Position numbers and translations under genes: made by a program. Positions 4,468 to 60,317 of a DNA stretch of 64,000 bases are shown in pieces. The stretch lies in NCBI GenBank assembly GCA_047600485.1, contig JASGKS010000001.1, positions 6,656,259 to 6,720,258 on the forward strand, in the 5' to 3' direction. The notes under the pieces were generated by a model, which saw nothing but the letters and a program-made list of their open reading frames with translations, had not been told where the DNA came from and did not search any database. Numbering within the stretch: position 1 is the first letter of the stretch; each line of letters begins with the position of its first letter. The stretch comes from Archangium sp. GTDB lineage: Bacteria > Myxococcota > Myxococcia > Myxococcales > Myxococcaceae.

Positions 4468-4506
4468 TCACCCTCACCCCGACCCTCTCCCTTGCGGGAG
4501 AGGGGG
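4468..4506. repeat. 45-nt GC-rich hairpin repeat, copy 2 (3' arm forms the SD of the caspase gene)
   Basis: ccctcaccccgaccctctcccttgcgggagaggggga. ATG 4516 lies about 10 nt downstream. Confidence 0.7.
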
Positions 4507-4515
4507 ATCGTTTCC

Positions 4516-28871: not shown

Positions 28872-29330
28872 GTGCCCGGGCCGAACGCGCGTTTTCAGCT
28901 GGTGACCGACGCCCTCCTCTTCATCGGAGCGCACCGCAACGTCCCCATCGTCGTCACCGATGTCCACCTCGTGCCGGCTGCTCCGCCGGAGCTGCACATC
29001 GCGCTCGAGCTGCACTACCGCGTCGCGACCCCGGTCTGCTGCGGAGAGCCCGGCTGCTACGTCGGCTTCCTCGGCCGGTACCGCGAGCGCGTGCCCGAGG
29101 CGTTGCAACGTGCGCTCGCGCTCGACGCTCCGCCGCGCGTGACGATTCGCGCGATGCCTCGCCACGAGCCCGGCTACCGGCACACGCAGTTCTCGTTCGC
29201 CTGCTCTGACGAGTGGACCGCGACGTACGGACCTGAGCACTTCGCTACCGCTGCAGCTGGCCCAGCCGCACCGCGAACTTCGGCGGAGCGAAACCCCAGT
29301 GCGGCGGAATCGGCTGCTTCACCACGGTGA
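28872..29330 (+). CDS. possible hypothetical protein (GTG start) overlapping the 3' end of the kinase gene
   Basis: Tail of long ORF 27726..29330, which is otherwise antisense to the acyl-CoA dehydrogenase. From about 28870 onward the composition is normal and GC3 is high (..VTDALLFIGAHRNVPIVVTDVHLVPAAPPELHIALELHYRVATPVCCGEPGCYVGF..). Confidence 0.25.
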   Translation: MPGPNARFQLVTDALLFIGAHRNVPIVVTDVHLVPAAPPELHIALELHYRVATPVCCGEPGCYVGFLGRYRERVPEALQRALALDAPPRVTIRAMPRHEPGYRHTQFSFACSDEWTATYGPEHFATAAAGPAAPRTSAERNPSAAESAASPR

Positions 29331-32187
29331 GCGCTTCCGCTGACCACACCCACAGCCGCGCCTTCTCGAGCTCTTCGCCGAGCGCCTTCAACGCCGCGGG
29401 CTCTTCCTTCGCCTTCATGCGCGCCTCGGTGAGCCTGAGCATCCACTCGCCCGAGCCGCGCATCGTCACGCGCTTCCCTTCATCGAGCGCGGCGTGCGCT
29501 TCAGCGTCCTTGTGCGCGAACCACAGCGCCAGGGCCTTGCGCGCCAGCAGCTGCGCCTCGAGCCATTCGAGCGGAGCGTTGCCGTGCACCGCCGTCACGC
29601 CCAGCTCACATTCCTTCGCCGCCTCGTCGAAGCGCTTCTGCGCCATCGCCACTTCAGCGCGCAGCACGCGCGTGATGCCGTGCACGCGCGGGAAGTCCTT
29701 CACGGTGGGCAACACCGCGTCGAGCATCAGCTGCGCTTGAGCGAGGTCGTCTTCCACCAGCGGGAACGCGGCGAGCTCGAACTTCGCCATCGCGCGCGTC
29801 TCGTCGCTCGACTCCGGCATGTCAGCTTCACGCGCGAGGTCGTCGATGAAGGTGAAGTGGCCCTCGATGCGGTCGACCTCGGCCTCGAGCAGCGACGCTT
29901 CCTGCGCCATCGCCTCTTCACGCAGCGCGCGCAGACAGTGCCGCGCTTCGCCGCCGACTTGTTTGGCGAGCGCGGTCTGCCCCATGTCGAGGTGGCCGCG
30001 CGCGAGCATCACGTCGAGCCTGCACGCGATGGCCGCGTCCGCCACGCGCGCTTCCTTCGCCGCCGCACGCAGCTCCGCCACCGAGGGCGCGACGCCTCGC
30101 GCTTCCTGCAACAACGCAATCTCGTACATCGCCTCCGACGCGCCGAGCAGGTCACCTGATTCGCGGAAGGTCAGCTGAGCCGCCCGCGCGAGGTCTTCGG
30201 CTTCCTTCTTCTGGTTCAACGCCACCAGCCGCTTCACGCGCTCCAGCTTCACGATGGCCTCGAGGTGCCTCTGACCTCGCGCCGTCGCCAATTGCTCGGC
30301 CGAGAGCAGCAGCTCCATCGCCTTCTTCGCGTCGGGCTCGAGCTGCGAGCGCACCCACGCTGCGCGCGCCTTGTCGGGTTCGGACCACTCGGCGTCGAGC
30401 GTGCGCCGTGCGTCTTCGAGCTGCCCCGACGCCGCGAGCGCCTCGGCGAGGGCGAAGCGAATCTCCGCGCGCGGCGGCAACTTCTTCAGTGCGGCGACGG
30501 CGTCACTCCAATTTCCGAGCGCGCGTGCGTACCGCGCCTCGACCCACGCACGTCCCTCAGCGGTGAGGATGTCGCGGTGCTCCCACGCGTTCTTCAACAC
30601 TGGCAGCGCGGTGGTGCGACCCACCTGCCGTTCTTCGACGTCGGCGAGCCGCAGCGCGATGGCGCTGTTGGTGTTGTCTCCCTGCAGACACTCGTCGTAG
30701 CCGTTCGCCGCTTCGGCCCACGCGTAGCGCGCGAGCGCGAGGTCACCCAGCGCGCACTGCTCGGCGATGTGCCGCTTCGCCACCACGCGGGTGATGGCCG
30801 CGCGCGACGATGCGTCGACCTTGAGCCCGTGCGCGACCCGAAACGCGTCGAGGCCGTCACCGATCAGCTCGTCCAGATTCGGGCGGTCGCCGTCGAACGA
30901 GCCGCCGGGCCATTCGAGGTGCAGGTGGAACTTCTCTCCCTTGCCGCTCACCTTGCCCGTGAGCCACACGTCGAAGTCGAGGCGGCGACCGAGCGTTTCT
31001 CCCAGATCGGCCGGCCACGGAGCGGTCAACGCCGCGTCCTTCACCGCCTCGCGCGCCCACAGCGGTGGCACCAGCGTCGCGTCGGTCGACGCGCTCAGAC
31101 CTGCTTCGGCTTCTTGCGTGGCAGACGCGGCGATCCACGCGTCGCGCGGCTCGAGGCCCGACTCGAACGGCAGCACCGCGATACGCGGCGGCCGCTTCAC
31201 GTTCATCGCGCGCTTCGCGACTCCGACGCCGACGCCGGTGGCCGCGAGCGCCACCACGGCGACCAGCGCCGGCAACAACTTCGAGCGTGGCTCTTCTTTC
31301 TGCGTGAAGCGGGCGGCCACGTCGGTCGCGCGCTGCGGCCTGCGCGACGGGTCTCTCGACAGACACTGCGAGACGAGCTTGCGAACCTTGCGCGGTGCCG
31401 AGTCACCCTCGAGCTCGAGCGGCTGCATGAACAGACGCGCGCGCGCGATTTCGTCGTCGGTCATGCCGCTGAACGGCAGCTTGCGCGTGAGCGCCTCGTA
31501 GATGACGACGCCCAGCGCGAACACGTCGGCGCGCAGGTCGATGGCTTTGCGCTCGACCTGTTCGGGCGCCATGTACCAGGGGCTCCCGCCGAGCGCGGTC
31601 TCGCTCTGCAGCGCGGCGAGGCCGAAGTCGGTCACCACCACGCGGTCGTCTTCGAGCACCACGTTCGACGGCTTGATGTCGAGGTGCACCAGGTTGCGGC
31701 CGTGCAGCTCCGCCAGGCCCGCGCAGATTTGCTCGATGACCGGAGCGAGCTCCGCGGGCGTCATCGGCCGCTTCAGCTGCTCGAGGTGCTGGGCGAGCGT
31801 CGGGCCGCGCAAGAGCTCCATGGTGATGAAGTGAACGCCTTGATCAGACCCGAAGTCGTACAGCCGGCAGAGGTTCTTGTGCGCCACCGAGCGACCGATG
31901 CGCAGCTCCTGCTTGAGCCATTCGAGCGCGTCGCTCTTGTCGGCCGAGCCCGCGCGCAACGTCTTGAGCGCGATGCGCACCCGCAGGTCTTCGTCGTACG
32001 CCTCGTAGACCTCGCCCATGCCGCCGCGACCCAGCAGGCGAATCAACTTGTAGCGACCCGCGAGCACCGTGCCCGTGACGTGGCTCGGCGAACCACGCGG
32101 TCTCGATTCTTCGTCGCGAAGGGTCCCCACGGCGCCCGCCACTCTACCCTCGCGCGCGCGCACGTCCGTTTCGCGTTCTGGTTTCAT
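29245..32187 (-). CDS. Ser/Thr protein kinase with long C-terminal helical/TPR-like repeat region
   Basis: 980 aa. Hanks motifs GRGGMGEVY, IALKTL, HLDIKPSNVVL, DFGLA, GSPWYMAPE. One TM (LLPALVAVVALAATGV). Roughly 650-aa extracytoplasmic/helical repeat domain. Confidence 0.85.
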   Translation of the reverse strand: MKPERETDVRAREGRVAGAVGTLRDEESRPRGSPSHVTGTVLAGRYKLIRLLGRGGMGEVYEAYDEDLRVRIALKTLRAGSADKSDALEWLKQELRIGRSVAHKNLCRLYDFGSDQGVHFITMELLRGPTLAQHLEQLKRPMTPAELAPVIEQICAGLAELHGRNLVHLDIKPSNVVLEDDRVVVTDFGLAALQSETALGGSPWYMAPEQVERKAIDLRADVFALGVVIYEALTRKLPFSGMTDDEIARARLFMQPLELEGDSAPRKVRKLVSQCLSRDPSRRPQRATDVAARFTQKEEPRSKLLPALVAVVALAATGVGVGVAKRAMNVKRPPRIAVLPFESGLEPRDAWIAASATQEAEAGLSASTDATLVPPLWAREAVKDAALTAPWPADLGETLGRRLDFDVWLTGKVSGKGEKFHLHLEWPGGSFDGDRPNLDELIGDGLDAFRVAHGLKVDASSRAAITRVVAKRHIAEQCALGDLALARYAWAEAANGYDECLQGDNTNSAIALRLADVEERQVGRTTALPVLKNAWEHRDILTAEGRAWVEARYARALGNWSDAVAALKKLPPRAEIRFALAEALAASGQLEDARRTLDAEWSEPDKARAAWVRSQLEPDAKKAMELLLSAEQLATARGQRHLEAIVKLERVKRLVALNQKKEAEDLARAAQLTFRESGDLLGASEAMYEIALLQEARGVAPSVAELRAAAKEARVADAAIACRLDVMLARGHLDMGQTALAKQVGGEARHCLRALREEAMAQEASLLEAEVDRIEGHFTFIDDLAREADMPESSDETRAMAKFELAAFPLVEDDLAQAQLMLDAVLPTVKDFPRVHGITRVLRAEVAMAQKRFDEAAKECELGVTAVHGNAPLEWLEAQLLARKALALWFAHKDAEAHAALDEGKRVTMRGSGEWMLRLTEARMKAKEEPAALKALGEELEKARLWVWSAEALTVVKQPIPPHWGFAPPKFAVRLGQLQR

Positions 32188-32802: not shown

Positions 32803-34194
32803 ATGTCCGGAACCCTTCGCGACACGTCGGATCGCCGTTCACCGCACCTCCGCCCCGTGCTGATTCACGTGATGGGCTACGAGGACCTGCTCGCCGCGCC
32901 GCAAGGCCTGCGCATCGTCGAAGGCACGCTCGTCATCGGCCGCCGTGAAGAAGGCCGCAAAGACGGAGGCATGTGGCTCGACGACAAGCGCGTCTCGAGC
33001 CGCCACGTCGAGGTCGAGAAGAAGGGCGCGGGCGTGTTCGCCACCGACCTCGGTTCGAGCAACGGCACCATCTTGAACGGCAAGCCCATCAGCGGGCCGA
33101 CGCGTCTGACCGACGGAGACTTGATCGAGGTCGGCCGCACGCTGCTCTGCTTCCGTGAGTTGCCCGAAGGCGACATTCCCGCGGGCGGTTGGGCGTGGGG
33201 CGGCGGTCGCACCTTCAACGCGGAGCTGGGGCAGCTCGGCAATCAGCTGGACCGCATGGCGCGCTCGGCTGAGCCGGTGTTGCTGCTCGGCGAAACCGGC
33301 GCCGGTAAGGAAATCGCCGCGCGTCGCGTGCACGAGTTGAGCGGCCGCAGCGGCCCGATGGTGAGCATCGACTGCGGCGCGATGCCGGAGTCCCTCTTCG
33401 AGTCGACGCTCTTCGGTCACGAGAAGGGCGCCTTCACCGGAGCGACGGAGCCCCGCGTCGGCGACATCGCGCGCGCGCACAAGGGCACGCTGTTCCTCGA
33501 CGAGGTCGGCAACCTGCCGCTCGCCACGCAGGCGAAGTTGCTGCGCGTGCTGGAGACGAAGAGCGTGCGCCCGGTCGGCGGTCGCGAGCCGGTGGAGATT
33601 GACGTTCGCTGGGTCGCCGCCACCAACGCGTCGTTGAGCGACGAGTCGAGCTTCCGCAGCGACCTGCGCTTCCGTCTCGCGGGCTTCGTGGCGCGGTTGC
33701 CGCCGCTGCGTCGCCGTCGTGAAGACCTGGGCCTGCTCATCGCCGCGCTGTTGAAGGAAGCGGGCGTGAAGAAGGCGTCGCTCACCCGCAGCGCCGCGGG
33801 CCGGCTGCTCACGCACCCGCTGCCCGGCAACGTGCGCCAGCTGCGTCAGGTGCTGCGCGCCGCCGCGTTCCTCGCCACCGACGGCGAGCTGACCATCGAC
33901 CTCGACTCGCTCGACGAGATGGAGGATTTGGGCTCGAACGCGCCGCCCGAGTCGGAGAACGAAGCCGCCGCGTTGCCGGTGCGCCCGTCGTCGCCGAGCT
34001 CGTCGAACATCGCCGACGCGATTCCCGCCGCGCGCATGTCGGCGCCGGAACGCAGCGTGCTCGAGGCCGCGCTCACCGCCGCGCAGGGTCGTGTCTCGGC
34101 CGCCGCGCGTGCGCTGAACACCTCGCCGCGTCAGCTCTACCGCTGGCTGGAGCGCATGGGGCTCGACCCCGATTCGTTCCGCAAATTGACCTGA
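32803..34194 (+). CDS. sigma-54-dependent transcriptional activator with N-terminal FHA domain
   Basis: FHA core (LVIGRREEGRKDGGMWLDDKRVSSRHVEV..GVFATDLGSSNGTILNGKPI). AAA+ sigma-54 interaction domain with Walker A GETGAGKE and the GAFTGA loop (ESTLFGHEKGAFTGA). C-terminal HTH. Confidence 0.85.
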   Translation: MSGTLRDTSDRRSPHLRPVLIHVMGYEDLLAAPQGLRIVEGTLVIGRREEGRKDGGMWLDDKRVSSRHVEVEKKGAGVFATDLGSSNGTILNGKPISGPTRLTDGDLIEVGRTLLCFRELPEGDIPAGGWAWGGGRTFNAELGQLGNQLDRMARSAEPVLLLGETGAGKEIAARRVHELSGRSGPMVSIDCGAMPESLFESTLFGHEKGAFTGATEPRVGDIARAHKGTLFLDEVGNLPLATQAKLLRVLETKSVRPVGGREPVEIDVRWVAATNASLSDESSFRSDLRFRLAGFVARLPPLRRRREDLGLLIAALLKEAGVKKASLTRSAAGRLLTHPLPGNVRQLRQVLRAAAFLATDGELTIDLDSLDEMEDLGSNAPPESENEAAALPVRPSSPSSSNIADAIPAARMSAPERSVLEAALTAAQGRVSAAARALNTSPRQLYRWLERMGLDPDSFRKLT

Positions 34195-34216: not shown

Positions 34217-34984
34217 TTGAAGCCTTCGGGCATGCGTGCGCGAAAACGAATTCTGGTCGTCGAAGACGAGCTTCCGATTCGGCGCGGCCTCGCGGACGCT
34301 TTGATTTTCGCGGGGTTTTCGCCGGTGGAAGCCGCCAGCTGCGACGAGGCACGCCGCGCCGTGGAGGCCGGCACCTTCGACCTCGCGCTGGTCGACCTGG
34401 TGCTCCCCGGCGGGAGCGGTCTGTTGGTCGTCGACCATGCGCGCAAGCTGCAACCGGGTCTGCCGATCATCGCCGTCACCGCGTTGGGCGCTGAAGAGGA
34501 GCGCGTCGATGGGCTGCAGCGCGGCGTCGATGACTACGTCGTGAAGCCCTTCAGCGTGCGTGAGTTGCTCGCGCGCATCACCGCGGTGCTCCGCCGCTCG
34601 GCCGAACGCAGCACCGCGCCGCGCGAGCTGGTGCTCGGAGAATTGACCATCGACCTCGCGCGCCGCGAAGTGCGCAGCGGAGACACCGTCACCTTGCTCT
34701 CTGAGCGTGAGGGCGAGCTGCTCACCTATCTCGTGCAGCACGCAGGACGTGCTGTCTCGCGCGACGAGTTGATGCAGCACGTGTGGCGGCTCGAGCCAGG
34801 TGCCGTCGCGACGCGCACCATCGACATGACCGTCTCGCGGCTGCGCGAGAAGACGGGCGGCGACGCGCTGATTCGCACCCTGCGCGGCAAAGGCTACGTG
34901 CTGAAAACCTCCGGCGCTGAAGCACGACTCGGCCCCTCACCCGACCTCTCCCCGTTTCACAGGGAGAGGAGAGAGACGAATTGA
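34217..34984 (+). CDS. OmpR/PhoB-family response regulator
   Basis: Receiver domain (RILVVEDELPIRRGL, LALVDLVLPGGSG, KPF) and winged-helix output (TRTIDMTVSRLREK..RTLRGKGYVL). Possible start at 34232. The 3' end runs through a 45-nt repeat element. Confidence 0.85.
   Translation: MKPSGMRARKRILVVEDELPIRRGLADALIFAGFSPVEAASCDEARRAVEAGTFDLALVDLVLPGGSGLLVVDHARKLQPGLPIIAVTALGAEEERVDGLQRGVDDYVVKPFSVRELLARITAVLRRSAERSTAPRELVLGELTIDLARREVRSGDTVTLLSEREGELLTYLVQHAGRAVSRDELMQHVWRLEPGAVATRTIDMTVSRLREKTGGDALIRTLRGKGYVLKTSGAEARLGPSPDLSPFHRERRETN
34931..34975. repeat. 45-nt GC-rich hairpin repeat, copy 5 (in the 3' end of the response-regulator gene, upstream of the histidine kinase TTG start)
   Basis: ggcccctcacccgacctctccccgtttcacagggagaggagagag. 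Confidence 0.7.
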
Positions 34985-36372
34985 GAGCGTGGCTTCTCCT
35001 CGCGGCGGCACTCCTCGGTTCCGCCCTCGCGCTGCTGGCGGTGAGCGTCAGCCTCGTGCGTCTCGACGAACGCGAGGTCACCAATGAGCAGACGCGCCTC
35101 GCACTGTGGCGCATGGAGCTGGTGCTGAGCCGCGTCGTCGCTGCAGAGAGTGCTCGTCCGTCGCGCTTCGACATCTCACCGAGCGGCGAGCTCTCGGGTG
35201 AACTCCTCGCACGCTACGTGCCGCAGCTCACCGCGCGCGACCAGACGGAGCTGCCCAACAACTTCGCCGCCGACTTCACGCGCCGCAACATTCTCGCCAA
35301 CGCACCCGACCCCGAGCCGAGCCACTCCACGCAGCTCTCCCCGATGTGGATCGACGACGCGCTCTTCCTCGTGCGGCGCGAGTACAGCGGCGAGGGCGTG
35401 CACACGCGCGGCGTGATGCTCGACTGGCCGGCGCTGCGCCGACGACTGCTGCGCGAAGTGACCGACTTGCTCCCCGAAGCCGAACTGCGCCCCGCACGCG
35501 CTGCGACGCCCGACGCTGCGCTCCTCGCCTCGATGCCGCTCGAGCTCGTGCCCGGCAGACCCGCGCGGAGCGAAACGCGTGCTCCAGTTCGCGACGTGCT
35601 GCTCGCCGCGTGGGGCGCGTGGGCGGTGGTCGCGTTCGCACTCGTGGTGTTGGTGCACCGCACTCGTGCGCTCGACAAGCGACGCAAGGCCTTCGTGTCT
35701 GCGGTGACGCACGAGCTGCGCACGCCGCTCACCACGTTCAAGCTGTACGCCGAGATGCTCGAGGGCGGCATGGTGCCGGCCGACCAACAGTCCCTCTACC
35801 TCGCGCGGCTGCGACAGGAAGCGAACCGCCTCGGCTACCTCGTCGAGAACGTCCTCGCCTGGGCGCAGGTCGAGCGCGGACGGCGTCGCAAGCCGCTCGA
35901 AGACGTGGCCTGCGACGAGCTGCTCGACACCATCGTGCCGCGGCTCTCACAGCGCGCTGAGCTGGGCTCCTTCACGCTCGACGTGGGCGACCTTCCGACC
36001 TTGCGCGTGCGCGCCGACCGCATCTCCGTCGAGCAGGTGCTCTTCAACCTCGTCGACAACGCGTGCAAGTACGCGGCGCGCTCCGACGCGCGACGCATCG
36101 CGCTCACCTGCGCGGTTCAGGAATCTCGACTCGAGCTGACCGTCGCCGATGACGGTCCGGGCGTCGCCGCCGAGGTCGCGCGCAAGCTGTTCGAGCCGAT
36201 GCAGAAGTCCGCCAGCGAGTCGGCCAATGGTGCGCACGGCATCGGCCTCGGTCTCGCGTTGAGCCGGCAGCTGGCGCGCGCGATGGGCGGAGAGCTCGCT
36301 TCACGCCCCGCTCCGCAGGGCGCCCAGTTCGTGCTCACCCTGCCGCTGGCCGAAGCAGTTACACGGCAGTGA
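34981..36372 (+). CDS. sensor histidine kinase
   Basis: TTG start overlapping the regulator stop. Two TM segments. H-box AVTHELRTPLT, N-box LFNLVDNACKYA, G-boxes DDGPGV and GIGLGLALSRQLA. Confidence 0.85.
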   Translation: MRAWLLLAAALLGSALALLAVSVSLVRLDEREVTNEQTRLALWRMELVLSRVVAAESARPSRFDISPSGELSGELLARYVPQLTARDQTELPNNFAADFTRRNILANAPDPEPSHSTQLSPMWIDDALFLVRREYSGEGVHTRGVMLDWPALRRRLLREVTDLLPEAELRPARAATPDAALLASMPLELVPGRPARSETRAPVRDVLLAAWGAWAVVAFALVVLVHRTRALDKRRKAFVSAVTHELRTPLTTFKLYAEMLEGGMVPADQQSLYLARLRQEANRLGYLVENVLAWAQVERGRRRKPLEDVACDELLDTIVPRLSQRAELGSFTLDVGDLPTLRVRADRISVEQVLFNLVDNACKYAARSDARRIALTCAVQESRLELTVADDGPGVAAEVARKLFEPMQKSASESANGAHGIGLGLALSRQLARAMGGELASRPAPQGAQFVLTLPLAEAVTRQ

Positions 36373-36406
36373 CGATCTGACGAGCGGCTCGCGCGTTCGA
36401 CGCCGC

Positions 36407-38110
36407 ATGATCAGACACCTCCTCGTGCCCCTGGCGTTGCTGCTTCCTCTCTTTCCGGCGTTCGAATTCGAAGACGTCGCGAGCGCCGTTCCTGCATCGG
36501 TTTCGAAGCCCGCCGAGCCGCAGCCGCACGAACCCGGCGAGCTCGCGCTCAGCACCACCAAGGTCGTCATCTTCAAGGACGGCCACGGCCTGTTCATCAA
36601 GACCGCACGCGGAGTGGCCGACGCGAGTGGCCGCGTGTTCACCGAGAAAGTCCCCGAGCAGGCGGTGCTCGGCACGTTCTGGGCGGTGCCCGACGACCGG
36701 CCGCTGCGCTCCACCATCGCGTCGTGGCACGAGAGCGTGAAGGCGCGCTCCGAAGAACGTTCGTGTCTGTCGACGCTCGAGCTGCTGCGCGCGAACGAGG
36801 GCAAGAAGCTCACGCTGGCCATCGGTGAGCACGAGCTGACGGTGAAGGTCATCGACGTGCTCGAGGCGAGTGGCACCGCGGCGGCGCCCGAGACCGAAGG
36901 CGTGTGGGAAAAGGAAGTGCAGCTCCGCGGCGCTGAGTTGGTGACGGTCGAGACCTCCGAGGGTGTGCGCCAGGTGCTCCCGGTGAGCAGCATCCGCACC
37001 GTGGCGGGCCGCGACCTCAACACGCACTGCGTGGAACGCCGTGAACTGGCGAAGCGCGCGCGACGGCTGACCTTCGACTTCGGGCCCGAGGCCGCGAACA
37101 AGGCCGTGTCGCTGCACGTGATGTATTTCACGCCCGGCGTGCGGTGGATTCCGACGTACCGCGTGAAGACCGGCAAGGGCGCGAAGGCCGAGGTCTCGCT
37201 GCAGGCGGAGATTCTCAACGAGGAAGAAGACTTCGAGTCGGCCACCGTCGACCTGGTGGTCGGCGTGCCGAGCTTCAAGTTCGCGTCGACCGTTTCGCCA
37301 CTCGCGCTCGAGCAGACGATGCGCTCGACGCTGGCGCAGGCGATGCCATCGCTGATGCTCAACAATTACGGCCTCAGCAACGCGAACTTCGACGTGCGCT
37401 CGGGAGAACGCTCCTCCGAGGCAAGGGCGGGCACGCAGTCGACGGAGCTCAACTCGGTCGCCGCGCAGCTGGGCGGCGAGAACAAGCAGGACTTCTTCGT
37501 GTACCCGGTGAAGGGGCTCAGTCTGGCGCGAGGGGCGCGCGCGGTGGTGCCGCTGTGGAAGCGCGAGGTGCCGCAGCGTCACGTCTACACCGCGGAGCTC
37601 ACCGACGATGGCATGGCGCGCAACGTCGGCACGCTGCAGCAGAACATCGTGATGCATCAGCTGGAGCTCACCAACGACACCGACCTGCCCTTCACCACCG
37701 GCGCGGCGATGGTCACCGACGGAGATCTCCCGCTCGGCCAGGACGTGCTCGCGTACACCTCGAGCGGCGGCAAGACGCTGTTGCCCATCACCACCGCGCT
37801 CAACCTGCGCGCCGTGATGTCGAGCACCGAGCTTCAGCGCACGCCGAACGCGACGACCATCGACGGTCGCTTGTTCACGCAGCTCGCTCGACGCACCAAG
37901 GTCACGCTCTCCAACCTCGACCGCACGCCAGTCACGCTGCGGCTGTCGGTGAACGTCACGGGGAAGGTCAGCAACGTCACGATGCGCGGTGACGCGAATC
38001 AGCTCGAGACGTACGACCGCGTGAACTCGCACGGCACGGTGAGCTGGGAAGTGACGCTCGCTCCGGGCGCGCGGCTCGAGGTGGCGTACGACGCGACCAT
38101 GCTGCTCTGA
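36407..38110 (+). CDS. secreted hypothetical protein
   Basis: 567 aa. Signal peptide (LVPLALLLPLFPAFE). No confident family. Confidence 0.5.
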   Translation: MIRHLLVPLALLLPLFPAFEFEDVASAVPASVSKPAEPQPHEPGELALSTTKVVIFKDGHGLFIKTARGVADASGRVFTEKVPEQAVLGTFWAVPDDRPLRSTIASWHESVKARSEERSCLSTLELLRANEGKKLTLAIGEHELTVKVIDVLEASGTAAAPETEGVWEKEVQLRGAELVTVETSEGVRQVLPVSSIRTVAGRDLNTHCVERRELAKRARRLTFDFGPEAANKAVSLHVMYFTPGVRWIPTYRVKTGKGAKAEVSLQAEILNEEEDFESATVDLVVGVPSFKFASTVSPLALEQTMRSTLAQAMPSLMLNNYGLSNANFDVRSGERSSEARAGTQSTELNSVAAQLGGENKQDFFVYPVKGLSLARGARAVVPLWKREVPQRHVYTAELTDDGMARNVGTLQQNIVMHQLELTNDTDLPFTTGAAMVTDGDLPLGQDVLAYTSSGGKTLLPITTALNLRAVMSSTELQRTPNATTIDGRLFTQLARRTKVTLSNLDRTPVTLRLSVNVTGKVSNVTMRGDANQLETYDRVNSHGTVSWEVTLAPGARLEVAYDATMLL

Positions 38111-38232
38111 AGCGATCGTCCGGGCCGGTCGGAATTTCGGGGCCATTTCCGCCCGGAATTCCGACACCTACACCAGTTGATCCAACGCGTTACGGCGCTG
38201 CCCGAATCTCGTGGTGTGTTGTCTAAGAACGC

Positions 38233-38730
38233 ATGCCACCGCTGCCTCCGGTGAAGGTGCTCTTCAGTCAGTACGGAGGCATGGTGCTGCGGCGCGCGCG
38301 GGCGCTGTTGGGCGATGAGCACGCGGCTCGAGACGCGGCGCAGGAAGTGTTTCTGCAGGTGCTGCGCGCGGAAGATCAATTCCGCAGCGAGAGCTCGCCG
38401 GTGACGTGGCTGTACCGCATCACGACCAACGTCTGTCTCAACCTGCTCAAGCACCACTCGCGTCGGCGCGAAGACTTCGCGGGTGAATTGCCGGAGCACC
38501 ACGAAGAGCAGCGCGTCAGCGTCGACGAGAAGTTGTCGATTCACGCGGTGCTGGCGCGCGTGCCCGAGCCGCTGCGCGAAATCGCGACGTACTACTACCT
38601 GGACCAGATGAGCCACGACGAGATCGCCCGGCTCTGCAACGTCTCGCGCCGCACCGTCGGAAATCGACTCGTCGAGTTCCACGCAGCCGCGAGCCTCCTC
38701 ACCGAGCCGAACAAGAAGGTGGTCTCATGA
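38233..38730 (+). CDS. ECF-family RNA polymerase sigma factor (paralog of the 3232..3720 gene)
   Basis: YGGMVLRRARALLGDEHAARDAAQEVFLQVLRA..TTNVCLNLLKH closely parallels YGPMVLRRCRHLLRDEARALDAMQDVFVLVLRH..ATNVCLNLMRG in the first sigma. Region-4 HTH MSHDEIARLCNVSRRTVGNRL. Confidence 0.8.
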   Translation: MPPLPPVKVLFSQYGGMVLRRARALLGDEHAARDAAQEVFLQVLRAEDQFRSESSPVTWLYRITTNVCLNLLKHHSRRREDFAGELPEHHEEQRVSVDEKLSIHAVLARVPEPLREIATYYYLDQMSHDEIARLCNVSRRTVGNRLVEFHAAASLLTEPNKKVVS

Positions 38731-40595
38731 CTGCGCTGCTCTCTCGCCGGGACGATCGCTGCCTCTCGGACCTCACGATGGATCGCTTTCTCCTCGGAGA
38801 GACGAGCGACTCCGACGAGGGCCGCATGCTCGAGCGTCACCTCGCGTGGTGCTCGAACTGCCTCGCGCGCGTGCAGTCGCTGCGCACGCTCTACGCGCAC
38901 GCCGACATGCCGGAAGTGACTGATCAGCCGGCGCCGGTTCCCACTCCGGGGCCGATGCCCGCGCAGCGCGCCGATGCGGTGAGCGGCGTGCTCGAGCTGG
39001 TGCTGATGCGCGACGGGTTGCTCATCGGCACCGAGGTGTTCACGCCGGGCACGTGGTGCGTGGGCTCGGGCCCGCGCGCGAACTTGAAGCTCGACGCCAA
39101 AGGAGTGGCCGCCGAGCACGCGAAGCTCTCGTTCCGCAACGACCGCGTGATCATCGAGCGATTGCAGGGGCCGGTGTTGGTGAATGGGTATCGCGTGGAG
39201 CGCAGTGAGGTTCGGCCGATCGACGAGATCATCGTCGGGCCGTTCGTCATCCGCTCGCGGGTGATCAGTGGTCGGTGGTCGGAAGAATCTGCGCCGCCCA
39301 GCAAGCTCGCGGTGACTCGCCCGATTCGCGCGCTGCCGGTCGTGGAGGTCGAGGACGAGACGCAGCTCGTCACGGTTCCGGCGCAGGCTGCTCCGGTCGC
39401 TCCGGTGGCGCCGGCTGGTGCGGTTGCGGCGCTGCGACTCGATCTCTACTGGGGTGACGCACTGCAGGCGTCCGAGTTGGTGGCGGGCAACGTGCCGACG
39501 TCGGCATTCCCCGCGTTCGCGCCTGGTCGTGAGCCGAGCGCCGCGGCCGTCGCAGGTGGCTACCGACTCTGTGTTCCCGGTGCGCGCGTCGAGGTGTTGC
39601 GGAACGGGAATTGGATCAACGCTGGCGACGAGCTGCTCCTCGCCGATGGAGAACGCGCGCGTGTCATCGACGGTGCGCTGCGTCTCGAAGCGCGTCTGCA
39701 AGTTGCGCCGGCACTCGTGCCGCCGAAGCCGAAGACCGAGTTTCTGCGCGGCGGTTTCGTTCCGGCGCTGTCGTTCTTGATGCTCGGCCTCTTCGTCTTC
39801 GCCGGAGTCGCCAGCGGCATGGAGCCGGAGGACAGCTTCGAGCCGAAGAGCACGGCGAAGCTGTCGGTGTACATGGTGCCTCCGCCGCCGAAGACGAAGA
39901 TCGAGGTGCCGAAGAACACGGCGCCCGAACGTGGCGACGTTCAGCCGAAGTCACCGGTGAAGCGCACGCCTGCTGCTGCGCCGCCTGCGAAGAATCCTCC
40001 GCCGCACCTCGCGGGCCTCGCGGGCATGAGCAAGGTGATGGAGCAGATCAACAAGCTGAAGAACTCCACGCTCCCCACGGGGCCGGGCAAGGGAGCGAAG
40101 CAGCCTGATCTCTTCGCGGGACTGGGAAAGATTGGCGGGAAGAACGGGGTGGGCTTCGGTCTTGGGCCTGACAGCGCGACGGGTATCGGCGCGACGGGCC
40201 TGAAGGGCACGGGCGAGATGAAGGCGGGGCGCACCGGCAAGGGTCGCGTGGGTGGCACGCTGGTCGGGCCCGTGTCGCGTGACGCGGTGGCGCTCAAGGG
40301 AACGATCGATCGCGACGCGGTGGCGAAGGTCATCAACGAGCACCTCGCGGAAGTGTCGGCTTGTTACGAGCGCGGGCTGCTGACGCACCCTGGGCTGAAC
40401 GGAAAGCTCGGCTACGAGTGGGTCATCGGGCTCGGCGGTGAAGTGACGAGCGTGAAGATGAAGGCCGGGACGATGAAGGACGCCGGCGTCGCGAGCTGCG
40501 TGGGCAATGCCATCAAGAAGTGGAAGTTCCCGAAGCCGCGCGGTGGGCAGGTGACGATCAGCTACCCGTTCATGTTCCAGGCGCGCGATTTCTGA
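38727..40595 (+). CDS. anti-sigma factor fused to FHA domain, TM segment, Pro-rich linker and AgmX/PglI-type C-terminal domain
   Basis: 4-nt overlap with the sigma stop. zf-HC2 motif HLAWCSNC. FHA core (WCVGSGPRANLKLDAKGVAAEHAKLSFRNDRVIIERLQGPVLVNG). TM (FVPALSFLMLGLFVFAGVA). Pro-rich linker. The C-terminal block VSRDAVALKGTIDRDAVAKVINEHLAEVSACYERGL..SYPFMFQA is homologous to the C-terminus of the 1019..2449 gene (AgmX/PglI domain). Confidence 0.7.
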   Translation: MTALLSRRDDRCLSDLTMDRFLLGETSDSDEGRMLERHLAWCSNCLARVQSLRTLYAHADMPEVTDQPAPVPTPGPMPAQRADAVSGVLELVLMRDGLLIGTEVFTPGTWCVGSGPRANLKLDAKGVAAEHAKLSFRNDRVIIERLQGPVLVNGYRVERSEVRPIDEIIVGPFVIRSRVISGRWSEESAPPSKLAVTRPIRALPVVEVEDETQLVTVPAQAAPVAPVAPAGAVAALRLDLYWGDALQASELVAGNVPTSAFPAFAPGREPSAAAVAGGYRLCVPGARVEVLRNGNWINAGDELLLADGERARVIDGALRLEARLQVAPALVPPKPKTEFLRGGFVPALSFLMLGLFVFAGVASGMEPEDSFEPKSTAKLSVYMVPPPPKTKIEVPKNTAPERGDVQPKSPVKRTPAAAPPAKNPPPHLAGLAGMSKVMEQINKLKNSTLPTGPGKGAKQPDLFAGLGKIGGKNGVGFGLGPDSATGIGATGLKGTGEMKAGRTGKGRVGGTLVGPVSRDAVALKGTIDRDAVAKVINEHLAEVSACYERGLLTHPGLNGKLGYEWVIGLGGEVTSVKMKAGTMKDAGVASCVGNAIKKWKFPKPRGGQVTISYPFMFQARDF

Positions 40596-41018: not shown

Positions 41019-42350
41019 ATGAACGCGCGCCTTCTCTTCCTCGGTGGAGTTCTCGTCTTCGGAGCGGTCTCGTGCGGCAAGGCGCCGAAGAAGGACTGCG
41101 ACGCTACGTCGTGTCCGGCCGGCTGCTGCGACCTCGACGGTGAATGCCAGGGCGGCACCCTGCGCGATGCGTGCGGAGCTCCCGGTGGTGTCTGCACGGT
41201 GTGCGGCGCTGATCAGCTCTGCTCGTTCGGCGTCTGCTTCGGTGGCAACACCAGCGGTGGCGGCACCGGCGGCGGAGCGACCGGCGGCGGTGGCGGCACG
41301 ACTGGCGGTGGCGGCACGACTGGCGGTGGCGGCACGACTGGCGGTGGCGGTGCGACGGGCGGTGGCGCGACGGGCGGCGGTGGAGCGACCGGCGGCGGCG
41401 GAGCAACGGGCGGTGGCGGAACGACCGGCGGTGGCGGAGCAACGGGCGGTGGCGGAACGACCGGCGGTGGCGGCTCGACCGGCGGTGGACCTCCGTCCTG
41501 CACGAACATCACCGGAGATCGCCGCACGCAGGTCTGCCTGCGCTGGACCTGCGACCGCGTGGACCTCGACGAAGGCACCTGGGGCGGCAACGTCGCCGCG
41601 TGCATGCCGGGCGATCTCACGCCGGCCGCGCGCGCGAACGCGGTGAAGCTGCTCAACACCTACCGCTTCATCGCCGGCCTGCCGCCAGTGACGAACTCGC
41701 CGACGCGTGACGCTCCGGCGCAAGACTGCGCGCTGATGATGGACGCGGCCAACGCGCTCTCGCACACGCCCGACGCCGGAGCGCCCTGCTACACGACCAC
41801 CGGCGCGATGGCGGCCGGCAGCAGCAACATCTCGAGCGCACGCGCCGTCGAATCCATCGACTACTACATGAGCGACTTCGGCAACTCGACGACCATGGGT
41901 CACCGCCGCTGGTTCTTGTCCAACCAACTCGGGCCCGTCGGCATCGGCGGCACGACCGACGCGAGCTGTCACTGGGTCATCGGCGGCAGCGGCACGGCCA
42001 GCATGCGCTTCGCTGCGTGGCCTCCGCCGGGCCCGGTGCCGCTGCAGGGCATCAACATTCCCAACGTCGGCACCGCGAACTCAGTCGATCGCACCGGGTG
42101 GACGGTGCAGACCTACGCGACGGCCGACAACCTCACCGACGCCGGCATCACCGTCACCGACCTCACCACCGACGCGGGGCTTCCGGTCACCATCAACCTG
42201 CTCGGCGCGAACTACGGCAGCCGCTTCGCGTTGCGCTTCGTGCCCAACGGGTGGACGTCGCAGGCCGGCCACAACTACGCGGTGAGCGTGAGCGGGCCGC
42301 TGCTCACGAATCCGATCAACTACGTGGTCGAGGTTGTGACCTGCCCCTGA
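41019..42350 (+). CDS. lipoprotein with N-terminal Cys-rich module, Gly/Thr tandem-repeat linker and C-terminal CAP (SCP/PR-1-like) domain
   Basis: Lipobox AVSCG. CPAGCCDLDGECQGG..CTVCGADQLCSFGVC module. About 15 GGGxT repeats. CAP-like signature region (..ANALSHTPDAG..MSDFGNSTTMGHRRWFLSN..ASCHWVIGG). Confidence 0.65.
   Translation: MNARLLFLGGVLVFGAVSCGKAPKKDCDATSCPAGCCDLDGECQGGTLRDACGAPGGVCTVCGADQLCSFGVCFGGNTSGGGTGGGATGGGGGTTGGGGTTGGGGTTGGGGATGGGATGGGGATGGGGATGGGGTTGGGGATGGGGTTGGGGSTGGGPPSCTNITGDRRTQVCLRWTCDRVDLDEGTWGGNVAACMPGDLTPAARANAVKLLNTYRFIAGLPPVTNSPTRDAPAQDCALMMDAANALSHTPDAGAPCYTTTGAMAAGSSNISSARAVESIDYYMSDFGNSTTMGHRRWFLSNQLGPVGIGGTTDASCHWVIGGSGTASMRFAAWPPPGPVPLQGINIPNVGTANSVDRTGWTVQTYATADNLTDAGITVTDLTTDAGLPVTINLLGANYGSRFALRFVPNGWTSQAGHNYAVSVSGPLLTNPINYVVEVVTCP
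41255..41485. repeat. in-frame 15-bp tandem repeat (about 15 units, ggcggtggcggnacgac-type) encoding a (GGGxT)n linker
   Basis: Runs of ggtggcggcacgactggc / ggtggcggagcaacgggc units. Coding, not CRISPR: there are no spacers and the units are contiguous. Confidence 0.8.
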
Positions 42351-42625: not shown

Positions 42626-43333
42626 CTACGCCTCGCACTCCGAGCGCTGATCCGTCAGCTCCCCCACCACCTCGAGCACGAGCTTCCCGTCAGCTCCGAG
42701 CTTCGCGCTCAGCGTCTTCTTCCCATCGAGCGGCGCCGACAGCGTGAGCGTCGCTTCACCAGTACTCGCGTTCACCTTGAACGTGCCGTTGTGCGTGACG
42801 ACCTTCACCTCGCCATCATCGGTCATCACCTTGCGCGAGAGCGTGAACGCGCCGCTCGGCAAGAAGTCGAGCTCCGCCATGTTGCCGTACGCACCGGGTG
42901 ACGGGCCGTACCACCTCACGGCCACCAACAACGCGCGCGCATCCGTCACCTTCGCCGGGTCCTTGCCCAACAACCGCTGATACCGGAGCGTGTCGCGAAT
43001 CGACTCCAGGTCCGCGTCGCTCTGCATGCGCTTGCGCCGGCCCTCGTCGAGCTTCACCGCCGCCTCGAGCTCATCGAGCACCGTCGACTGATACGCGTCG
43101 AACTCACACACCTTGTTCTGCTTGCGCATCAGCCCGAGCGTGCAGGCGAGGTTGTAGTGAGACAGTGCGTGGTTCGGATCCGCGGCAATCGCCGCGCGGA
43201 ACTTCTCGATCGCCTGCTCGTATTGCTTCGCCTTGTAGAGCTTGAAGCCCTCGGTGTTCAGCGACGCCGCGGGAGAAACAGGAACCGCCGGGGCTCCAGC
43301 CAGACACACACTCAACAGCAGCGCGAACGTCAC
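42626..43333 (-). CDS. secreted TPR-repeat protein
   Basis: Signal peptide. TPR-like helices (YKAKQYEQAIEKFRAAIAADPNHALSHYNLACTLGL). 235 aa. Confidence 0.55.
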   Translation of the reverse strand: MTFALLLSVCLAGAPAVPVSPAASLNTEGFKLYKAKQYEQAIEKFRAAIAADPNHALSHYNLACTLGLMRKQNKVCEFDAYQSTVLDELEAAVKLDEGRRKRMQSDADLESIRDTLRYQRLLGKDPAKVTDARALLVAVRWYGPSPGAYGNMAELDFLPSGAFTLSRKVMTDDGEVKVVTHNGTFKVNASTGEATLTLSAPLDGKKTLSAKLGADGKLVLEVVGELTDQRSECEA

Positions 43334-43396
43334 GCAGTCACCTCAGGGTTTGGAACTCGGAGACTGCGCGCGACATTCCGCCGACGTTCGGCGAAC

Positions 43397-44398
43397 TCAG
43401 CTCGGCTTCACACGCTCGAGAATCTGATCGACCAGCTTCACGCTGGTGAGGCCTTCGCTCTCGGCGGTGAAGTTCGGCAACACGCGGTGACGCAGCACCG
43501 GCCGCGCGAGCGCACGCACGTCGTCGACGGTGGCGGCGAAGCGACCGGCGAGCACCGCGCGGGCTTTCGCTCCGACCACGAGGTACTGCGACGCGCGCGG
43601 GCCAGCACCCCAGCTCACGTTGCGCGCCACGAAGTCGAGCGCACCCGGCTCCTTGGGACGCGTCGCGCGCGCGAGGTCGACCGCGAACTTCACGACGTGG
43701 TCGGGCACCGGCACCCGGCGCACGAGGTCCTGCAGCGCGAGAATCTGGTCGGGCGCCAGCACCTTGCTCAACGGAGCGCTCGGCCCACCCGTCGTCTGCT
43801 TCACGATCTGCACTTCCTCTTCCGCGCTCGGGTAGCCGACGTCGACGAGGAACATGAAACGGTCGAGCTGCGCCTCGGGCAGCGGGTACGTGCCTTCCTG
43901 CTCGATGGGGTTCTGCGTCGCGAACACCAGGAACGGCGGCTCCAGCGGCCAGGTGCGGCCCGACGCCGTCACGCGCTGTTCCTGCATCGCCTGCAGCAGC
44001 GCAGCCTGCGTCTTCGGCGGCGTGCGGTTCACCTCGTCGGCGAGCACGATGTTCGCGAACAGCGGGCCCTTCATGAACCGCAGCTCGCGGCGACCCGTGG
44101 CGCGGTCTTCCTCGAGAATGTCGGTGCCCGTGATGTCCGACGGCATCAGGTCGGGCGTGAACTGAATGCGGTTGAACGAGAGGTTCAACACCTCGGCCAG
44201 CGTGCTGATCAGCAGCGTCTTCGCCAGACCCGGCACGCCGACGAACAGGCAGTGCCCGCGCGAGAAGAGGCTGATCAACAGATGATCGACCACGTCGCGC
44301 TGACCGACCACGCGCTTCTCGATCTGCTCCACCACCTGCGACCGGGCCTTCGCCAGCGCCTCGACGGCCTTCAGGTCGTCACCGCTCACGTCACTCAT
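43397..44398 (-). CDS. MoxR-family AAA+ ATPase
   Basis: Walker A GVPGLAKT and Walker B LADEVNR. The 333-aa length and overall signature are typical of MoxR/RavA. Confidence 0.9.
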   Translation of the reverse strand: MSDVSGDDLKAVEALAKARSQVVEQIEKRVVGQRDVVDHLLISLFSRGHCLFVGVPGLAKTLLISTLAEVLNLSFNRIQFTPDLMPSDITGTDILEEDRATGRRELRFMKGPLFANIVLADEVNRTPPKTQAALLQAMQEQRVTASGRTWPLEPPFLVFATQNPIEQEGTYPLPEAQLDRFMFLVDVGYPSAEEEVQIVKQTTGGPSAPLSKVLAPDQILALQDLVRRVPVPDHVVKFAVDLARATRPKEPGALDFVARNVSWGAGPRASQYLVVGAKARAVLAGRFAATVDDVRALARPVLRHRVLPNFTAESEGLTSVKLVDQILERVKPS

Positions 44399-44417
44399 GC
44401 GCGAACGTCGTAACGCC

Positions 44418-47400
44418 TCACGGGTCGAACGTCACGAGGAAGGGAGTGAACACCGACGTCGGAGTGCCCGACGCCGGCAGCGTGCGCGCCGCGTTCACCA
44501 TGGTGCCAGCACCGTTGAAGTCGAGCACCGCGTGGAAGTGACTGGTGTCGTCACCGTCGTTCATCATGTTGTTGAAGTCGCTCTCTCCACCGCTCTGCCC
44601 GCCCGGGCCCTGCTGCCCGAGCAACGTGATGCTGCGGTGGAGTGGAACGGCCGTGAACGCCATGGTGTTCCCATTCGGGTTCCCGCTCGTGATGGTGATG
44701 TCGCTGAGCTGCGTCGCTGTGCCCAGCACCCCGCTGCCGCTGACGGGCAACGTCACCTTCGAGACGTTCATGGTGGCGATGGCGTCCGAAGTGCACACCG
44801 TCGGCGGAGTCGTCACGCCACCGCGACGGAACGTGCCGTTGCCGGAGTTGAAGCGCGCGCGCGTGATGCGCTTGCACATCACGTTGGGTTCGGTGGTGGT
44901 CGTGATCTGCGCGGTCATCAACAGGAACGCGTTGGTGCTCGCCGAGAGCGTCATGCCGTAGCTCGGGTTGCCCATGCCGCTGGTGGGAGCCGAGTTGGCG
45001 TGCACCACCGTCGAGCCCGCGAGGCTCACCACCTGGAAGCTCACGAAGCGGTTGGTGGCCGTACCGTTGGCGTCGAGCTGCACCTGCGTCGGGCTGTTCA
45101 GCTTGATGATGGGGAAGCCGTTGCCGTCGTTCTGGGCGCTCTCATAGGTGTTCGACATCAAGATGAACGAGTTGGCGAGCGGCGCCGAGCTCACCGTCTG
45201 CATCGCGGTCGAGCCGGTGAGGTTCACCCGGAAATGCTGCACGGTCGCTCCGAAGCCCGACGCGTAGTCGCGGCCGTACGACACCGTCTGCCACTTGATG
45301 TTCATCGTGCCGTTCGCCGTCTGCCGGTTGCACACCACGTTCACGCCGCTCGAGTTGTCGAGGTGGCACTCCACGTTCTGGTCACTCGCGTCGAGCGTGT
45401 TGCCCGCCTGCGAGGGCCGGCCCGTCGAGGTGATGATGAGGAACGTGCGCGAGATGTCGTCGTTCGGAATCGGCACGCCGATGGAGCACGGCAACGTCGC
45501 CACCGAAACCAGGTCACACGAGCCACGACGCACCAGCGGGTAGACGGTGAGCGAGAGCACTCCGTTGGTCGAGCCGGCCGTCGCGTCAGACGCGGTGAGG
45601 TTGGCGGTCGCCGCGGTGGTCGCTCCAGTCGGTGTCGCTGAGCGGCCGCGCACGTAGACGGTGGTCGAGTTCATGCCGTGCGGGATGGTGAGCGTCGCCG
45701 GAGCCGCCGCCGTGCAGTCACTCGACGTCGACAACGTGCCGCCCGTCGCCACGCTCGGCGTGACGATGGTGGTGCCGTTGTTCAGCACTGCGTTCGCGCC
45801 GTCGCGACGCTGAATCGTGTACTGCTGACACGCTCCGGCTTCGAGGTCGGCCGTGCCCGTCACCACGAAGGAACCGGCCGCTCCCGTCGGCGTCACCGTC
45901 TGGTTCGGAGCGGCGGTGAGCACGCCCGACGTCGCAGACACCGTCGACGAACCGCCGCCGGTCGCGAGCATGAAGAACTCGTTCGACGCGCTGAAGCCCG
46001 AGCTGATGGTGAAGTTCGAGATGACGCTGGTGCACGCCGCGTCGGAATAGAAGGTGAGGCCCGCTCCGGCCGTCGCGGTGGGCGTCACCACCGTGTCCGC
46101 CGCGGTCAGCGCGACGTTGTTCGCCGCATCGAGCGTCTGAATGATGCCCGCCGACACGCAACCAAAACGCGCCGGAGCCGCCGTCGGCGGCTGCTGCCAG
46201 TTGAGCTTCGCGACGGCGCCGGCCGTGACGTTCCACGACTGGTTGGCGCTCAACGTCGGCCCCGTGCCCGACGCCGTGATGGTGTGCATCGTCGCGGTCG
46301 CGGGGTTGAAGGTGAAGGTGCCGGTGGGGCTGGCCGAGGTGAGGTTGAAGGTGGTGCCGGACGGAAGACCGCACGCGGTGCGCGCGAAGAACGTCGCGGT
46401 CGCCGAGCTGCTGGTGGTGATGGTGTACGGCGACGACGGCAACACGGTGTTCATGAACGCGTCGCGCAGCTGCACCGTCAGCGACGCGCTGCACGAACCC
46501 GACGTCACCGAGCCCGCGGCGTTGCTGAAGAAGATTTCAATCGGCGCCGCGGCGTTGACGGTGGTCGTCGCGGTGCCGGTGAGCATCGGCGACATCGAGG
46601 TGGCGACGATGGTGGTCGTGGCCGGCGCCGTGGCCAGGGTCGCGCGCGCGAAGACCGGGTCGGTCGACACCGCGCTCCCGTTGGGGATGACCACGTTCGC
46701 GGTCGCCATCGCGCCGGCGCAGGTGGTCGGCGTCGACGAGAACGAGAAGCGCGGGCTGCTGAACGTCACCGACAAGGGCGGGTCAGCCACGATGTCGTTG
46801 GTGAAGTTGTCCTTGCGGTGCACGACGATGCTTTGCGCCGTGCAGGTGCCGGCGGTGTACATGGACGGCACGTTCTCGACGAGCAACACCGCGAGCGGGC
46901 CCGGGCTCACCGTCAGACCGAGCGTCAGCATCTGCCCCGCGAGCGTCAGCCCGAAGCTCGGCGTCGCGGCGATGGTCGAGCGCACGCTGAAGGTCTTCGA
47001 CGAATTGCCCGGAGTCACCGGCAAACTCGTCGTCTGCGCAGTGCCCGTGCAGTTGTTCGAGTCGAACGCCACGATGCTGCCGCTCGCGACCAGCGCCATG
47101 GTCGTGGTGCCACCGGGAATCGGCACGAGGTTGCCGAAGCTGTCACGCCGCTCGATGGTGACCGTCACGCAGGTGTTGGCCGCCACCGACGCCATGCCGC
47201 CGGTCGGCGCGACGAACGCGAGGTTCGGAGAAGCGGGGCTCACCGTGAGCGTCAATGTCGCCGTCTGTCCGCTCAGAATCGCAGACACGTTCTGCGGAGC
47301 AGGCCCGCCGGTCGGCGCCGAGGCGGTCGCCTTCACGTAGAAGGTCGCGCGCACGTCGTTCGCCGTGAGCGGGATGGTGGTGATGGCCGCCATCGAACAA

Positions 47401-50222: not shown

Positions 50223-50300
50223 GTTCGAACCTGGAGCGCTCGTTGTGGGGGCCGACTTCAGGCGAGCGCGAGTACCTAAGAACTCTAGCGCAGCCGTGAT

Positions 50301-57755: not shown

Positions 57756-60317
<2,562 letters not shown>

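Follow-up and report, generated by a model that had tools for sequence, protein, structure and literature searches.

Bacteria monitor their envelope to a large extent through pairs of an extracytoplasmic function (ECF) sigma factor and an anti-sigma factor; what such a pair senses is set by the sensor end of the anti-sigma factor. Sigma factors of the RpoE/AlgU type are normally freed through proteolysis of a single-pass anti-sigma factor. GltG is the protein that transmits force across the periplasm from a proton channel in gliding myxobacteria. Here we describe a gene pair in a 64,000-nucleotide stretch of DNA from Archangium sp. (contig JASGKS010000001.1; the whole stretch is referred to below as the window), in which an ECF sigma gene overlaps the gene of a 622-residue partner that joins a putative anti-sigma module to a GltG-like scaffold.

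In class I anti-sigma factors, helix 4, which follows a flexible linker, is the main element binding sigma region 2 (PMC7406223). GltG and GltJ are the proteins also named PglI and AgmX, respectively (PMC3169522). GltG is laid out as an N-terminal forkhead-associated (FHA) domain, a central FHA domain before the transmembrane (TM) helix, a long periplasmic extension and a TonB-C-like domain, and its TM helix interacts with the motor protein AglR (PMC11761067). The GltG protein MXAN_4867 has the same domain order as the partner described here, including a WGD motif before the TM helix, minus the zinc finger. With modest confidence, we favor the reading that the two genes form a translationally coupled ECF sigma/anti-sigma pair in which the partner senses the envelope through its TonB-like end.

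The sigma gene and its overlapping partner

An initial annotation of the window had placed two open reading frames (ORFs) here and given them a 4-nt overlap. Both ORFs were recovered on the plus strand at the same coordinates, and the stop codon of the sigma gene and the start codon of the partner gene share the sequence ATGA (38727..38730). Both have the composition of coding DNA, with a GC3 (G+C fraction at third codon positions) of 0.84 in a window of 67% GC. The partner is identical to an NCBI protein from a 9.4-Mb contig of an Archangium sp. metagenome-assembled genome (MAG). The public annotation of that protein reads "AgmX/PglI C-terminal domain-containing protein" and nothing more; the predicted anti-sigma role is at present unannotated in public records.

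The sigma factor contains regions 2 and 4 only, both scoring above the family cutoffs (Sigma70_r2, 62.4 bits against a cutoff of 24; r4_2, 39.9 bits against 25.7), which is the definition of an ECF (group 4) sigma factor, and TIGR02937 gave 77.3 bits against a cutoff of 42.9. The nearest solved structures are those of AlgU (6in7), Mycobacterium tuberculosis SigE and RpoE (1or7). The protein is a paralog of a second sigma factor in the window, encoded at 3232..3720 (38% identity, E = 9e-25). This paralogy had been recognized before, but the "near-identical region-2 strings" said to accompany it were an overstatement, as the strings common to the two proteins are short (e.g., YG.MVLRR.R.LL.DE and TNVCLNL).

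At the N-terminus of the partner, the string HLAWCSNC together with C12 completes the pattern C-x25-H-x3-C-x2-C. The four predicted ligands, C12, H38, C42 and C45, are invariant across 13 family members. In an AlphaFold2 model of the partner built from a 12-sequence alignment, this region forms three helices (residues 15-22, 30-41 and 43-57; predicted local distance difference test score (pLDDT) of 76-85), with C12 located before helix 1, H38 ending helix 2, and C42 and C45 opening helix 3. Class I anti-sigma factors have the same arrangement: a bundle of three helices at the N-terminus that carries H-x3-C-x2-C and, before it, a Cys or His ligand. Compared as a profile with the other anti-sigma factor of the window (3717..4451), the module gave a weak match (E = 0.0013, probability 18%), and a shared origin of the two sigma/anti-sigma pairs is suggested.

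To define the family, residues 1-187 were used in an exhaustive profile search against 1.84 billion representatives. Among the 515 matches, the zinc finger and the FHA domain were both covered in only ~12 clusters at 50% identity (P0001, P0008-P0017 and P0020). All fusion members come from metagenomes or MAGs, so far only from uncultured Archangium relatives and other metagenome bacteria, and none is named as an anti-sigma factor. Word-indexed searches with the full protein, the family alignment or an alignment of the anti-sigma domain (ASD) returned just 3 to 8 matches and missed known members, and a scan of genome contigs found three related MAG loci plus two chance matches to actinobacterial zinc-finger anti-sigma factors. 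In the next ~35 representatives, the "LRDGLL" FHA subtype recurs, here from near residue 12 onward, and there is no zinc finger; these ASD-less proteins are sub-threshold GltG paralogs (212 to 224 bits).

The pairing with a sigma gene is retained throughout the loci compared. In nine of nine distinct loci (the window, L001, L004, L006, L010, L011, L012, L013/14 and L015), the last 4 nt of an ECF sigma gene overlap the start of the partner gene (ATGA or GTGA), and no other anti-sigma candidate was found beside the sigma gene. Across these loci the identity of the anti-sigma protein falls to 33-39% for the most distant, and the flanking genes differ. The anti-sigma module (residues 1-57) is the most conserved domain, with 54-61% identity to distant members, followed by the first FHA domain (residues 87-182, 41-54%), the C-terminal domain (residues 527-619, 31-55%) and the central domain (residues 233-327, 21-26%). 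Because the zinc-finger module is invariant and the most conserved part of the protein, and because the overlap with the sigma gene is kept in nine loci, the partner is credible as, and most likely is, the cognate anti-sigma factor of this sigma factor.

A neighbor-joining tree built on the FHA domain groups the 15 ASD-bearing sequences, without exception, in one clade nested within the family of ASD-less GltG paralogs. The only intruder in this clade is P0042, which opens with a Val at the very first position of the FHA domain and is read as having a truncated or miscalled 5' end. A single fusion event behind the ASD-bearing family is likely, though not proven. Two sisters of the clade, P0043 and P0051, have another short N-terminal extension, SP.LEEVDLVP.IHDAL, ahead of the same FHA subtype, which suggests that the GltG-like scaffold gained N-terminal adaptors more than once.

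A tentative candidate for an ECF-type promoter, CCAAC-N16-CGAA, precedes the sigma gene, and this block is invariant across the window and four related loci by alignment and pattern matches. The pattern has four matches in the window against 1.09 expected and is not enriched elsewhere, the other three matches being intragenic, and it marks no second gene of the window. At the distant loci L013 and L015 it was not found at the same spacing. Its geometry fits that of ECF promoters and suggests autoregulation by the sigma factor. Neither a sigma-70-type promoter nor an informative terminator was detected, and inspection by eye showed no GG-N10-GC of a sigma-54 promoter ahead of the sigma gene. 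The region at 38130..38163, upstream of the sigma gene, contains CGGAATTTCG and a perfect palindrome, CGGAATTCCG. A GAATT(T/A)CG-like string, in two or three copies ~11 nt apart, is kept in L001, L004, L006 and L007; these elements may be a regulator binding site.

The GltG-like scaffold of the partner

The partner is predicted to be a single-pass inner-membrane protein with a cytoplasmic N-terminus and a periplasmic C-terminus. The architecture proposed in the initial annotation, comprising an FHA domain, a TM helix, a Pro-rich spacer and an AgmX/PglI TonB-C-like end, was borne out (Table 1). A second, central FHA-like domain had been overlooked. When this domain was modeled separately, it gave a pLDDT of 89.5, and its L.L.L.WGD motif is also found in true GltG proteins; the entire scaffold is thus GltG-like. 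The partner cannot be classed as GltG itself, as its score against the GltG model NF033760 is 106.5 bits where the cutoff is 650, with the best stretch at residues 460-619. The true GltG proteins P0006 and P0007 reach 786 and 702 bits on the same model. Nor do glt, agl, tol or exb genes occur among the window genes scanned or the genes called at the related loci. A reading as GltJ (AgmX), which has a zinc ribbon and a GYF domain at its N-terminus, was also rejected, since NF033761 gave 44.7 bits against a cutoff of 450, over residues 524-617 only, and the N-terminal module is helical.

The sole hydrophobic segment of the partner spans residues 339-366 (Kyte-Doolittle 19-residue mean up to 2.27), and AlphaFold2 places helices at 337-342 and 344-362. 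This TM helix, FVPALSFLMLGLFVFAGVA, lies in the middle of the protein and contains no His. TonB and TolA have an N-terminal TM helix carrying a conserved Ser/His motif. The spacer that follows is rich in Gly, Pro and Lys (26, 21 and 18 of the 158 residues at 363-520), with a pLDDT below 50 over most of its length.

The C-terminal domain matched the AgmX/PglI model NF033768 at residues 527-618 with 103.8 bits against a cutoff of 40, covering the full model length. The domain has two Cys residues, C546 and C591, that are invariant in the family, and its AlphaFold2 pLDDT is 85-93. As noted previously, it is shared with the gene at 1019..2449, which scores 77.5 bits on the same model (32% identity, E = 1e-13). 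Identity as a TonB domain proper was rejected, with 16.2 bits against 24.6 for PF03544, no match to TIGR01352 and no Ser/His TM motif; true GltG relatives pass TIGR01352 with 31 to 33 bits against a cutoff of 27.1.

Table 1. Features of the sigma/anti-sigma locus and its context, in window coordinates
Feature	Position	Strand	Remarks
Candidate ECF-type promoter, CCAAC-N16-CGAA	38182..38206	+	27 nt before sigma start codon; tentative
ECF (group 4) sigma gene	38233..38730	+	165 aa, RpoE/AlgU-like
GltG-scaffold anti-sigma gene (putative)	38727..40595	+	622 aa, start overlapping sigma stop (ATGA)
Three-helix zinc-binding anti-sigma module (C12, H38, C42, C45)	38727..38897	+	Residues 1-57
Pro-rich unconserved linker at class I helix 4 position	38898..38984	+	Residues 58-86
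First FHA fold, without canonical phospho-Thr pocket	38985..39272	+	Residues 87-182
Second, divergent FHA-like beta sandwich, GltG central-domain homolog	39423..39707	+	Residues 233-327
Single TM helix, N-terminus cytoplasmic	39735..39812	+	Residues 337-362
Disordered Gly/Pro/Lys-rich periplasmic spacer	39813..40304	+	Residues 363-526; one predicted helix, 426-445
AgmX/PglI C-terminal domain, TonB-C-like alpha/beta fold	40305..40583	+	Residues 527-619
Hanks Ser/Thr kinase, context only	29245..32187	-	Pkinase 163.6 bits; divergent from activator gene, syntenic in L001
FHA-sigma54 activator, canonical FHA, context only	32803..34194	+	FHA 55.1 bits, Sigma54_activat 179.5 bits

Proposed mechanism and competing explanations

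In the mechanism that we propose, the zinc-finger module would sequester the sigma factor at the membrane, and the FHA domains would serve as protein-protein docking modules with no reading of phospho-threonine. The first FHA domain may take the place of the missing helix 4 and cover sigma region 2, while the second FHA-like domain and the TM helix may be docked on a membrane partner, as in GltG. Across the spacer of ~160 residues, the C-terminal domain would reach an outer-membrane or peptidoglycan-associated partner. An altered envelope contact would then free the sigma factor, either via regulated proteolysis, as with RseA and MucA, or via a conformational change, and the free sigma factor would activate its own promoter and a further regulon. 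The periplasmic TonB-like contact proposed in the initial annotation is plausible.

Several observations weigh against a sigma/anti-sigma pair of this kind. The initial annotation had named a zinc finger of the anti-sigma type, which stands as far as HLAWCSNC and the full ligand set are concerned but does not reach the Pfam threshold: zf-HC2 (PF13490) has a gathering score of 22.2 bits, and the whole partner gave 14.9 bits and residues 1-67 gave 19.1. In favor of the module, the same model matched all 13 family members, though in each case below threshold (best E = 1e-4). Also in its favor, the top match of the module profile among solved structures was the anti-sigma factor RslA (3hug_B), but at a weak E of 0.17, and one further weak match carries the name "anti-sigma factor RsiW". 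For residues 58-86, AlphaFold2 predicts no equivalent of helix 4; the pLDDT there is about 46 to 62, and distant members share 10-21% identity. Conservation of the TM helix is low (4-23%), and the helix lacks a Ser/His motif of the TonB type. Among the window genes scanned, none encodes a Tol/Exb/Agl motor, a protease or a TonB-dependent receptor. The strict test for monophyly of the ASD clade failed owing to P0042, with a bootstrap of 2/100.

To these points is added the state of two further loci from one population, L002 and L007, in which the sigma gene carries a frameshifting deletion of 233 nt and the partner gene is intact. The deletion is internal to the sigma ortholog (1790..2051 in L002 and ~3817..4078 in L007) and lies between GCTGCG microhomologies, and the conserved upstream blocks and the 615-aa partner ORF are undamaged. 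An intact partner beside a broken sigma gene hints at a sigma-independent, structural role.

Such a role is central to the explanation in which the partner is primarily a structural component of a Glt/Nfs-like envelope machine, and capture of the sigma factor is an assembly or engagement checkpoint comparable to FlgM. We consider this explanation doubtful. Apart from the intact partner at L002 and L007, it draws on the full GltG-like layout with its central domain, whose GltG counterpart is predicted to dock on the AglR5QS motor, and on the finding that the closest relatives are ASD-less GltG paralogs. However, no glt, nfs or agl genes adjoin the pair at any locus, the 106 bits obtained by the partner fall far below the 650 of the GltG model, and the central domain and the TM helix are the least conserved of its folded parts.

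A more doubtful possibility still is that the partner is a motor-coupled transducer of the TonB/TolA/GltG type, with its TM helix and the FHA-like domain next to the membrane docked on a Tol/Exb/Agl proton channel. Its tip would grip an outer-membrane partner, the degenerate FHA domain would replace helix 4 over sigma region 2, and mechanical engagement or disengagement would gate release of the sigma factor. If true, this would amount to cell-surface signaling by one polypeptide, with a force-generating machine tied directly to transcription.

The initial annotation had proposed that the sigma factor is controlled by phospho-threonine recognition, in which case the first FHA domain would bind phospho-threonine on a nearby Hanks kinase or its substrate and thereby control sigma release. 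We find such control unlikely because the phospho-threonine-reading residues are gone from the first FHA domain. The FHA fold is genuine, with the beta sandwich confirmed and Pfam PF00498 above cutoff, but the phospho-Thr-binding core also attributed to it lacks its Arg, Ser and Asn residues, and the better Pfam match is a type III secretion system model of the YscD type, which is non-phospho-binding. All three phosphate-contacting elements are missing in every family member: the GR of canonical FHA domains is replaced by GS, S-R-x-H is replaced by A/V/L-x-x-H (AAEH in the window protein), and the S-x-N-G loop lacks its Asn and is shortened by two residues. The nearest ASD-less paralogs have identical losses, whereas the phosphate-binding residues are kept in 3hx1, in true GltG and in the FHA-sigma54 activator of the window (32803). 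The FHA fold alone is therefore no proof of Ser/Thr-kinase signaling, a caution provided by this first FHA domain.

Genomic context supplies the remaining support for a kinase link. The two Hanks kinases previously reported near the pair (15088..17613 and 29245..32187) both contain Pkinase domains. Both the window and L001 encode a kinase and the FHA-sigma54 activator upstream of the pair; in L001 the kinase occupies the same position and the activator gene immediately precedes the sigma gene, a place taken in L006 by an activator-like ORF, judged from its N-terminal sequence only. Outside the window, however, L001 is the only locus with a confirmed Hanks kinase close to the pair, and none was called around the pair in L010, L011, L013/14 and L015. 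The canonical FHA domain of the activator (55 bits) is a more obvious kinase partner, and the kinase at 29245 most plausibly serves that domain.

It is very unlikely that the zinc finger itself is the sensor, with oxidation or thiol stress causing zinc loss and freeing the sigma factor as in RsrA, and with the remainder of the protein a mere membrane anchor. The complete C/H-x3-C-x2-C ligand set is invariant, but this motif is present in about half of membrane-bound class I anti-sigma factors and is thought to be structural there (PMC7406223), and a mere anchor would leave the conservation of the FHA and C-terminal domains unexplained. Finally, it is highly improbable that the partner is not an anti-sigma factor at all and that the genes are only co-transcribed, the zinc finger having another role such as that of a GltJ-like zinc ribbon: the sub-threshold model support, the missing helix 4 and the persistence of the partner in L002 and L007, where the sigma gene is lost, would fit, but the GltJ model matches the C-terminal domain only, the N-terminal module is helical with the ligand spacing of zinc-binding anti-sigma factors and forms no ribbon, and the 4-nt overlap with the sigma gene is retained in nine loci.

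Surrounding genes and comparison with known systems

Between the activator gene and the sigma gene (34217..38110), the window encodes an OmpR-type response regulator, a histidine kinase and a DUF4139 protein, an insert missing from L001 and, it seems, from L006. Downstream of the pair, the gene at 41019..42350 encodes a CAP/SCP-domain protein with a hydrophobic N-terminus, several early Cys residues and a long (T/A)GGGG repeat tract; in L001, though not in L006, an ORF of similar size comes after the pair. This gene is followed on the minus strand (42626..50984) by genes for a TPR protein of 235 aa, a MoxR AAA+ ATPase of 333 aa and a giant protein of 2188 aa, an arrangement also found after the pair in L001 and apparently in L006. 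The gyrB gene lies near the right end of the window (57846..60317).

The other Hanks kinase (15088..17613, minus strand, 841 aa) has an N-terminal zf-HC2 domain scoring 24.8 bits, above the cutoff of 22.2, with C2 and H27-x3-C31-x2-C34. Directly after it is a sigma-70-family gene of 243 aa (14275..15006, minus strand) in which region 4 only was detected, and a collagen-triple-helix-repeat protein is encoded next to the kinase (17633..18772, minus strand). In the zinc-finger kinase and its adjoining sigma gene, a Ser/Thr kinase and a sigma factor are linked more literally than in the ECF pair described here. The first ECF pair of the window, in which the sigma gene at 3232..3720 is followed by the non-zinc anti-sigma gene at 3717..4451, also has a 4-nt overlap. 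It is flanked by the genes for the membrane protein with the AgmX/PglI tail (1019..2449) and a DUF2807 protein (2521..3231), and beside it is a gene for a 705-aa caspase-domain protein (4492..6609).

Full-text searches of the literature library used found no description of an FHA-containing or TonB-C-tailed anti-sigma factor, in agreement with the earlier statement that GltG/PglI-like FHA proteins are not known in this role, and the ECF reclassification paper makes no mention of FHA. Kinase-associated ECF groups (EcfP/PknT, ECF43-like) typically have no co-encoded anti-sigma factor, and the kinase phosphorylates the sigma factor directly (PMC7826278). As in the EcfP/PknT-type groups, Hanks kinases are present in the region, but here it is the anti-sigma factor that is always present and the kinase that is not.

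RseA/RpoE and MucA/AlgU are similar in the type of sigma factor and in having a single-pass anti-sigma factor with a cytoplasmic N-terminus, and release by proteolysis is the default expectation from these systems. Unlike the partner, RseA and MucA have no zinc finger, FHA domain or TonB-like domain; no genes for DegS, RseP or RseB were seen in the window. FecR/FecI likewise combines an ECF sigma factor with a single-pass anti-sigma factor that reads an outer-membrane event, and TonB-type domains are involved. It differs in its FecI-type sigma factor and in a separate TonB energizer, whereas the sigma factor of the window is RpoE-like and the TonB-C-like domain is built into the partner. A FecR-type reading of the partner was rejected, as no FecR match was obtained at E up to 1 and no TonB-dependent receptor is encoded among the window genes scanned.

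The class I zinc anti-sigma factors RslA, RsrA, ChrR and RsiW resemble the partner in position, coupling, the Cys and H-x3-C-x2-C ligands, the single membrane pass and the extracytoplasmic C-terminus. The partner differs from them in having only three predicted helices, two FHA folds before the membrane and an AgmX/PglI periplasmic end. GltG, in turn, keeps the GR and SRxH elements that the partner has lost, and the partner is set apart from it by the N-terminal anti-sigma module and the paired sigma gene. If the fusion works as we infer, a TonB/TolA-like transducer would have been rewired into a transcriptional switch, and this would provide a simple genetic readout for ligands of AgmX/PglI-type domains, whose binding is still poorly understood. 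That ECF/anti-sigma pairs vary in their sensor domains is well known, and the GltG-scaffold fusion adds a variant to this theme.

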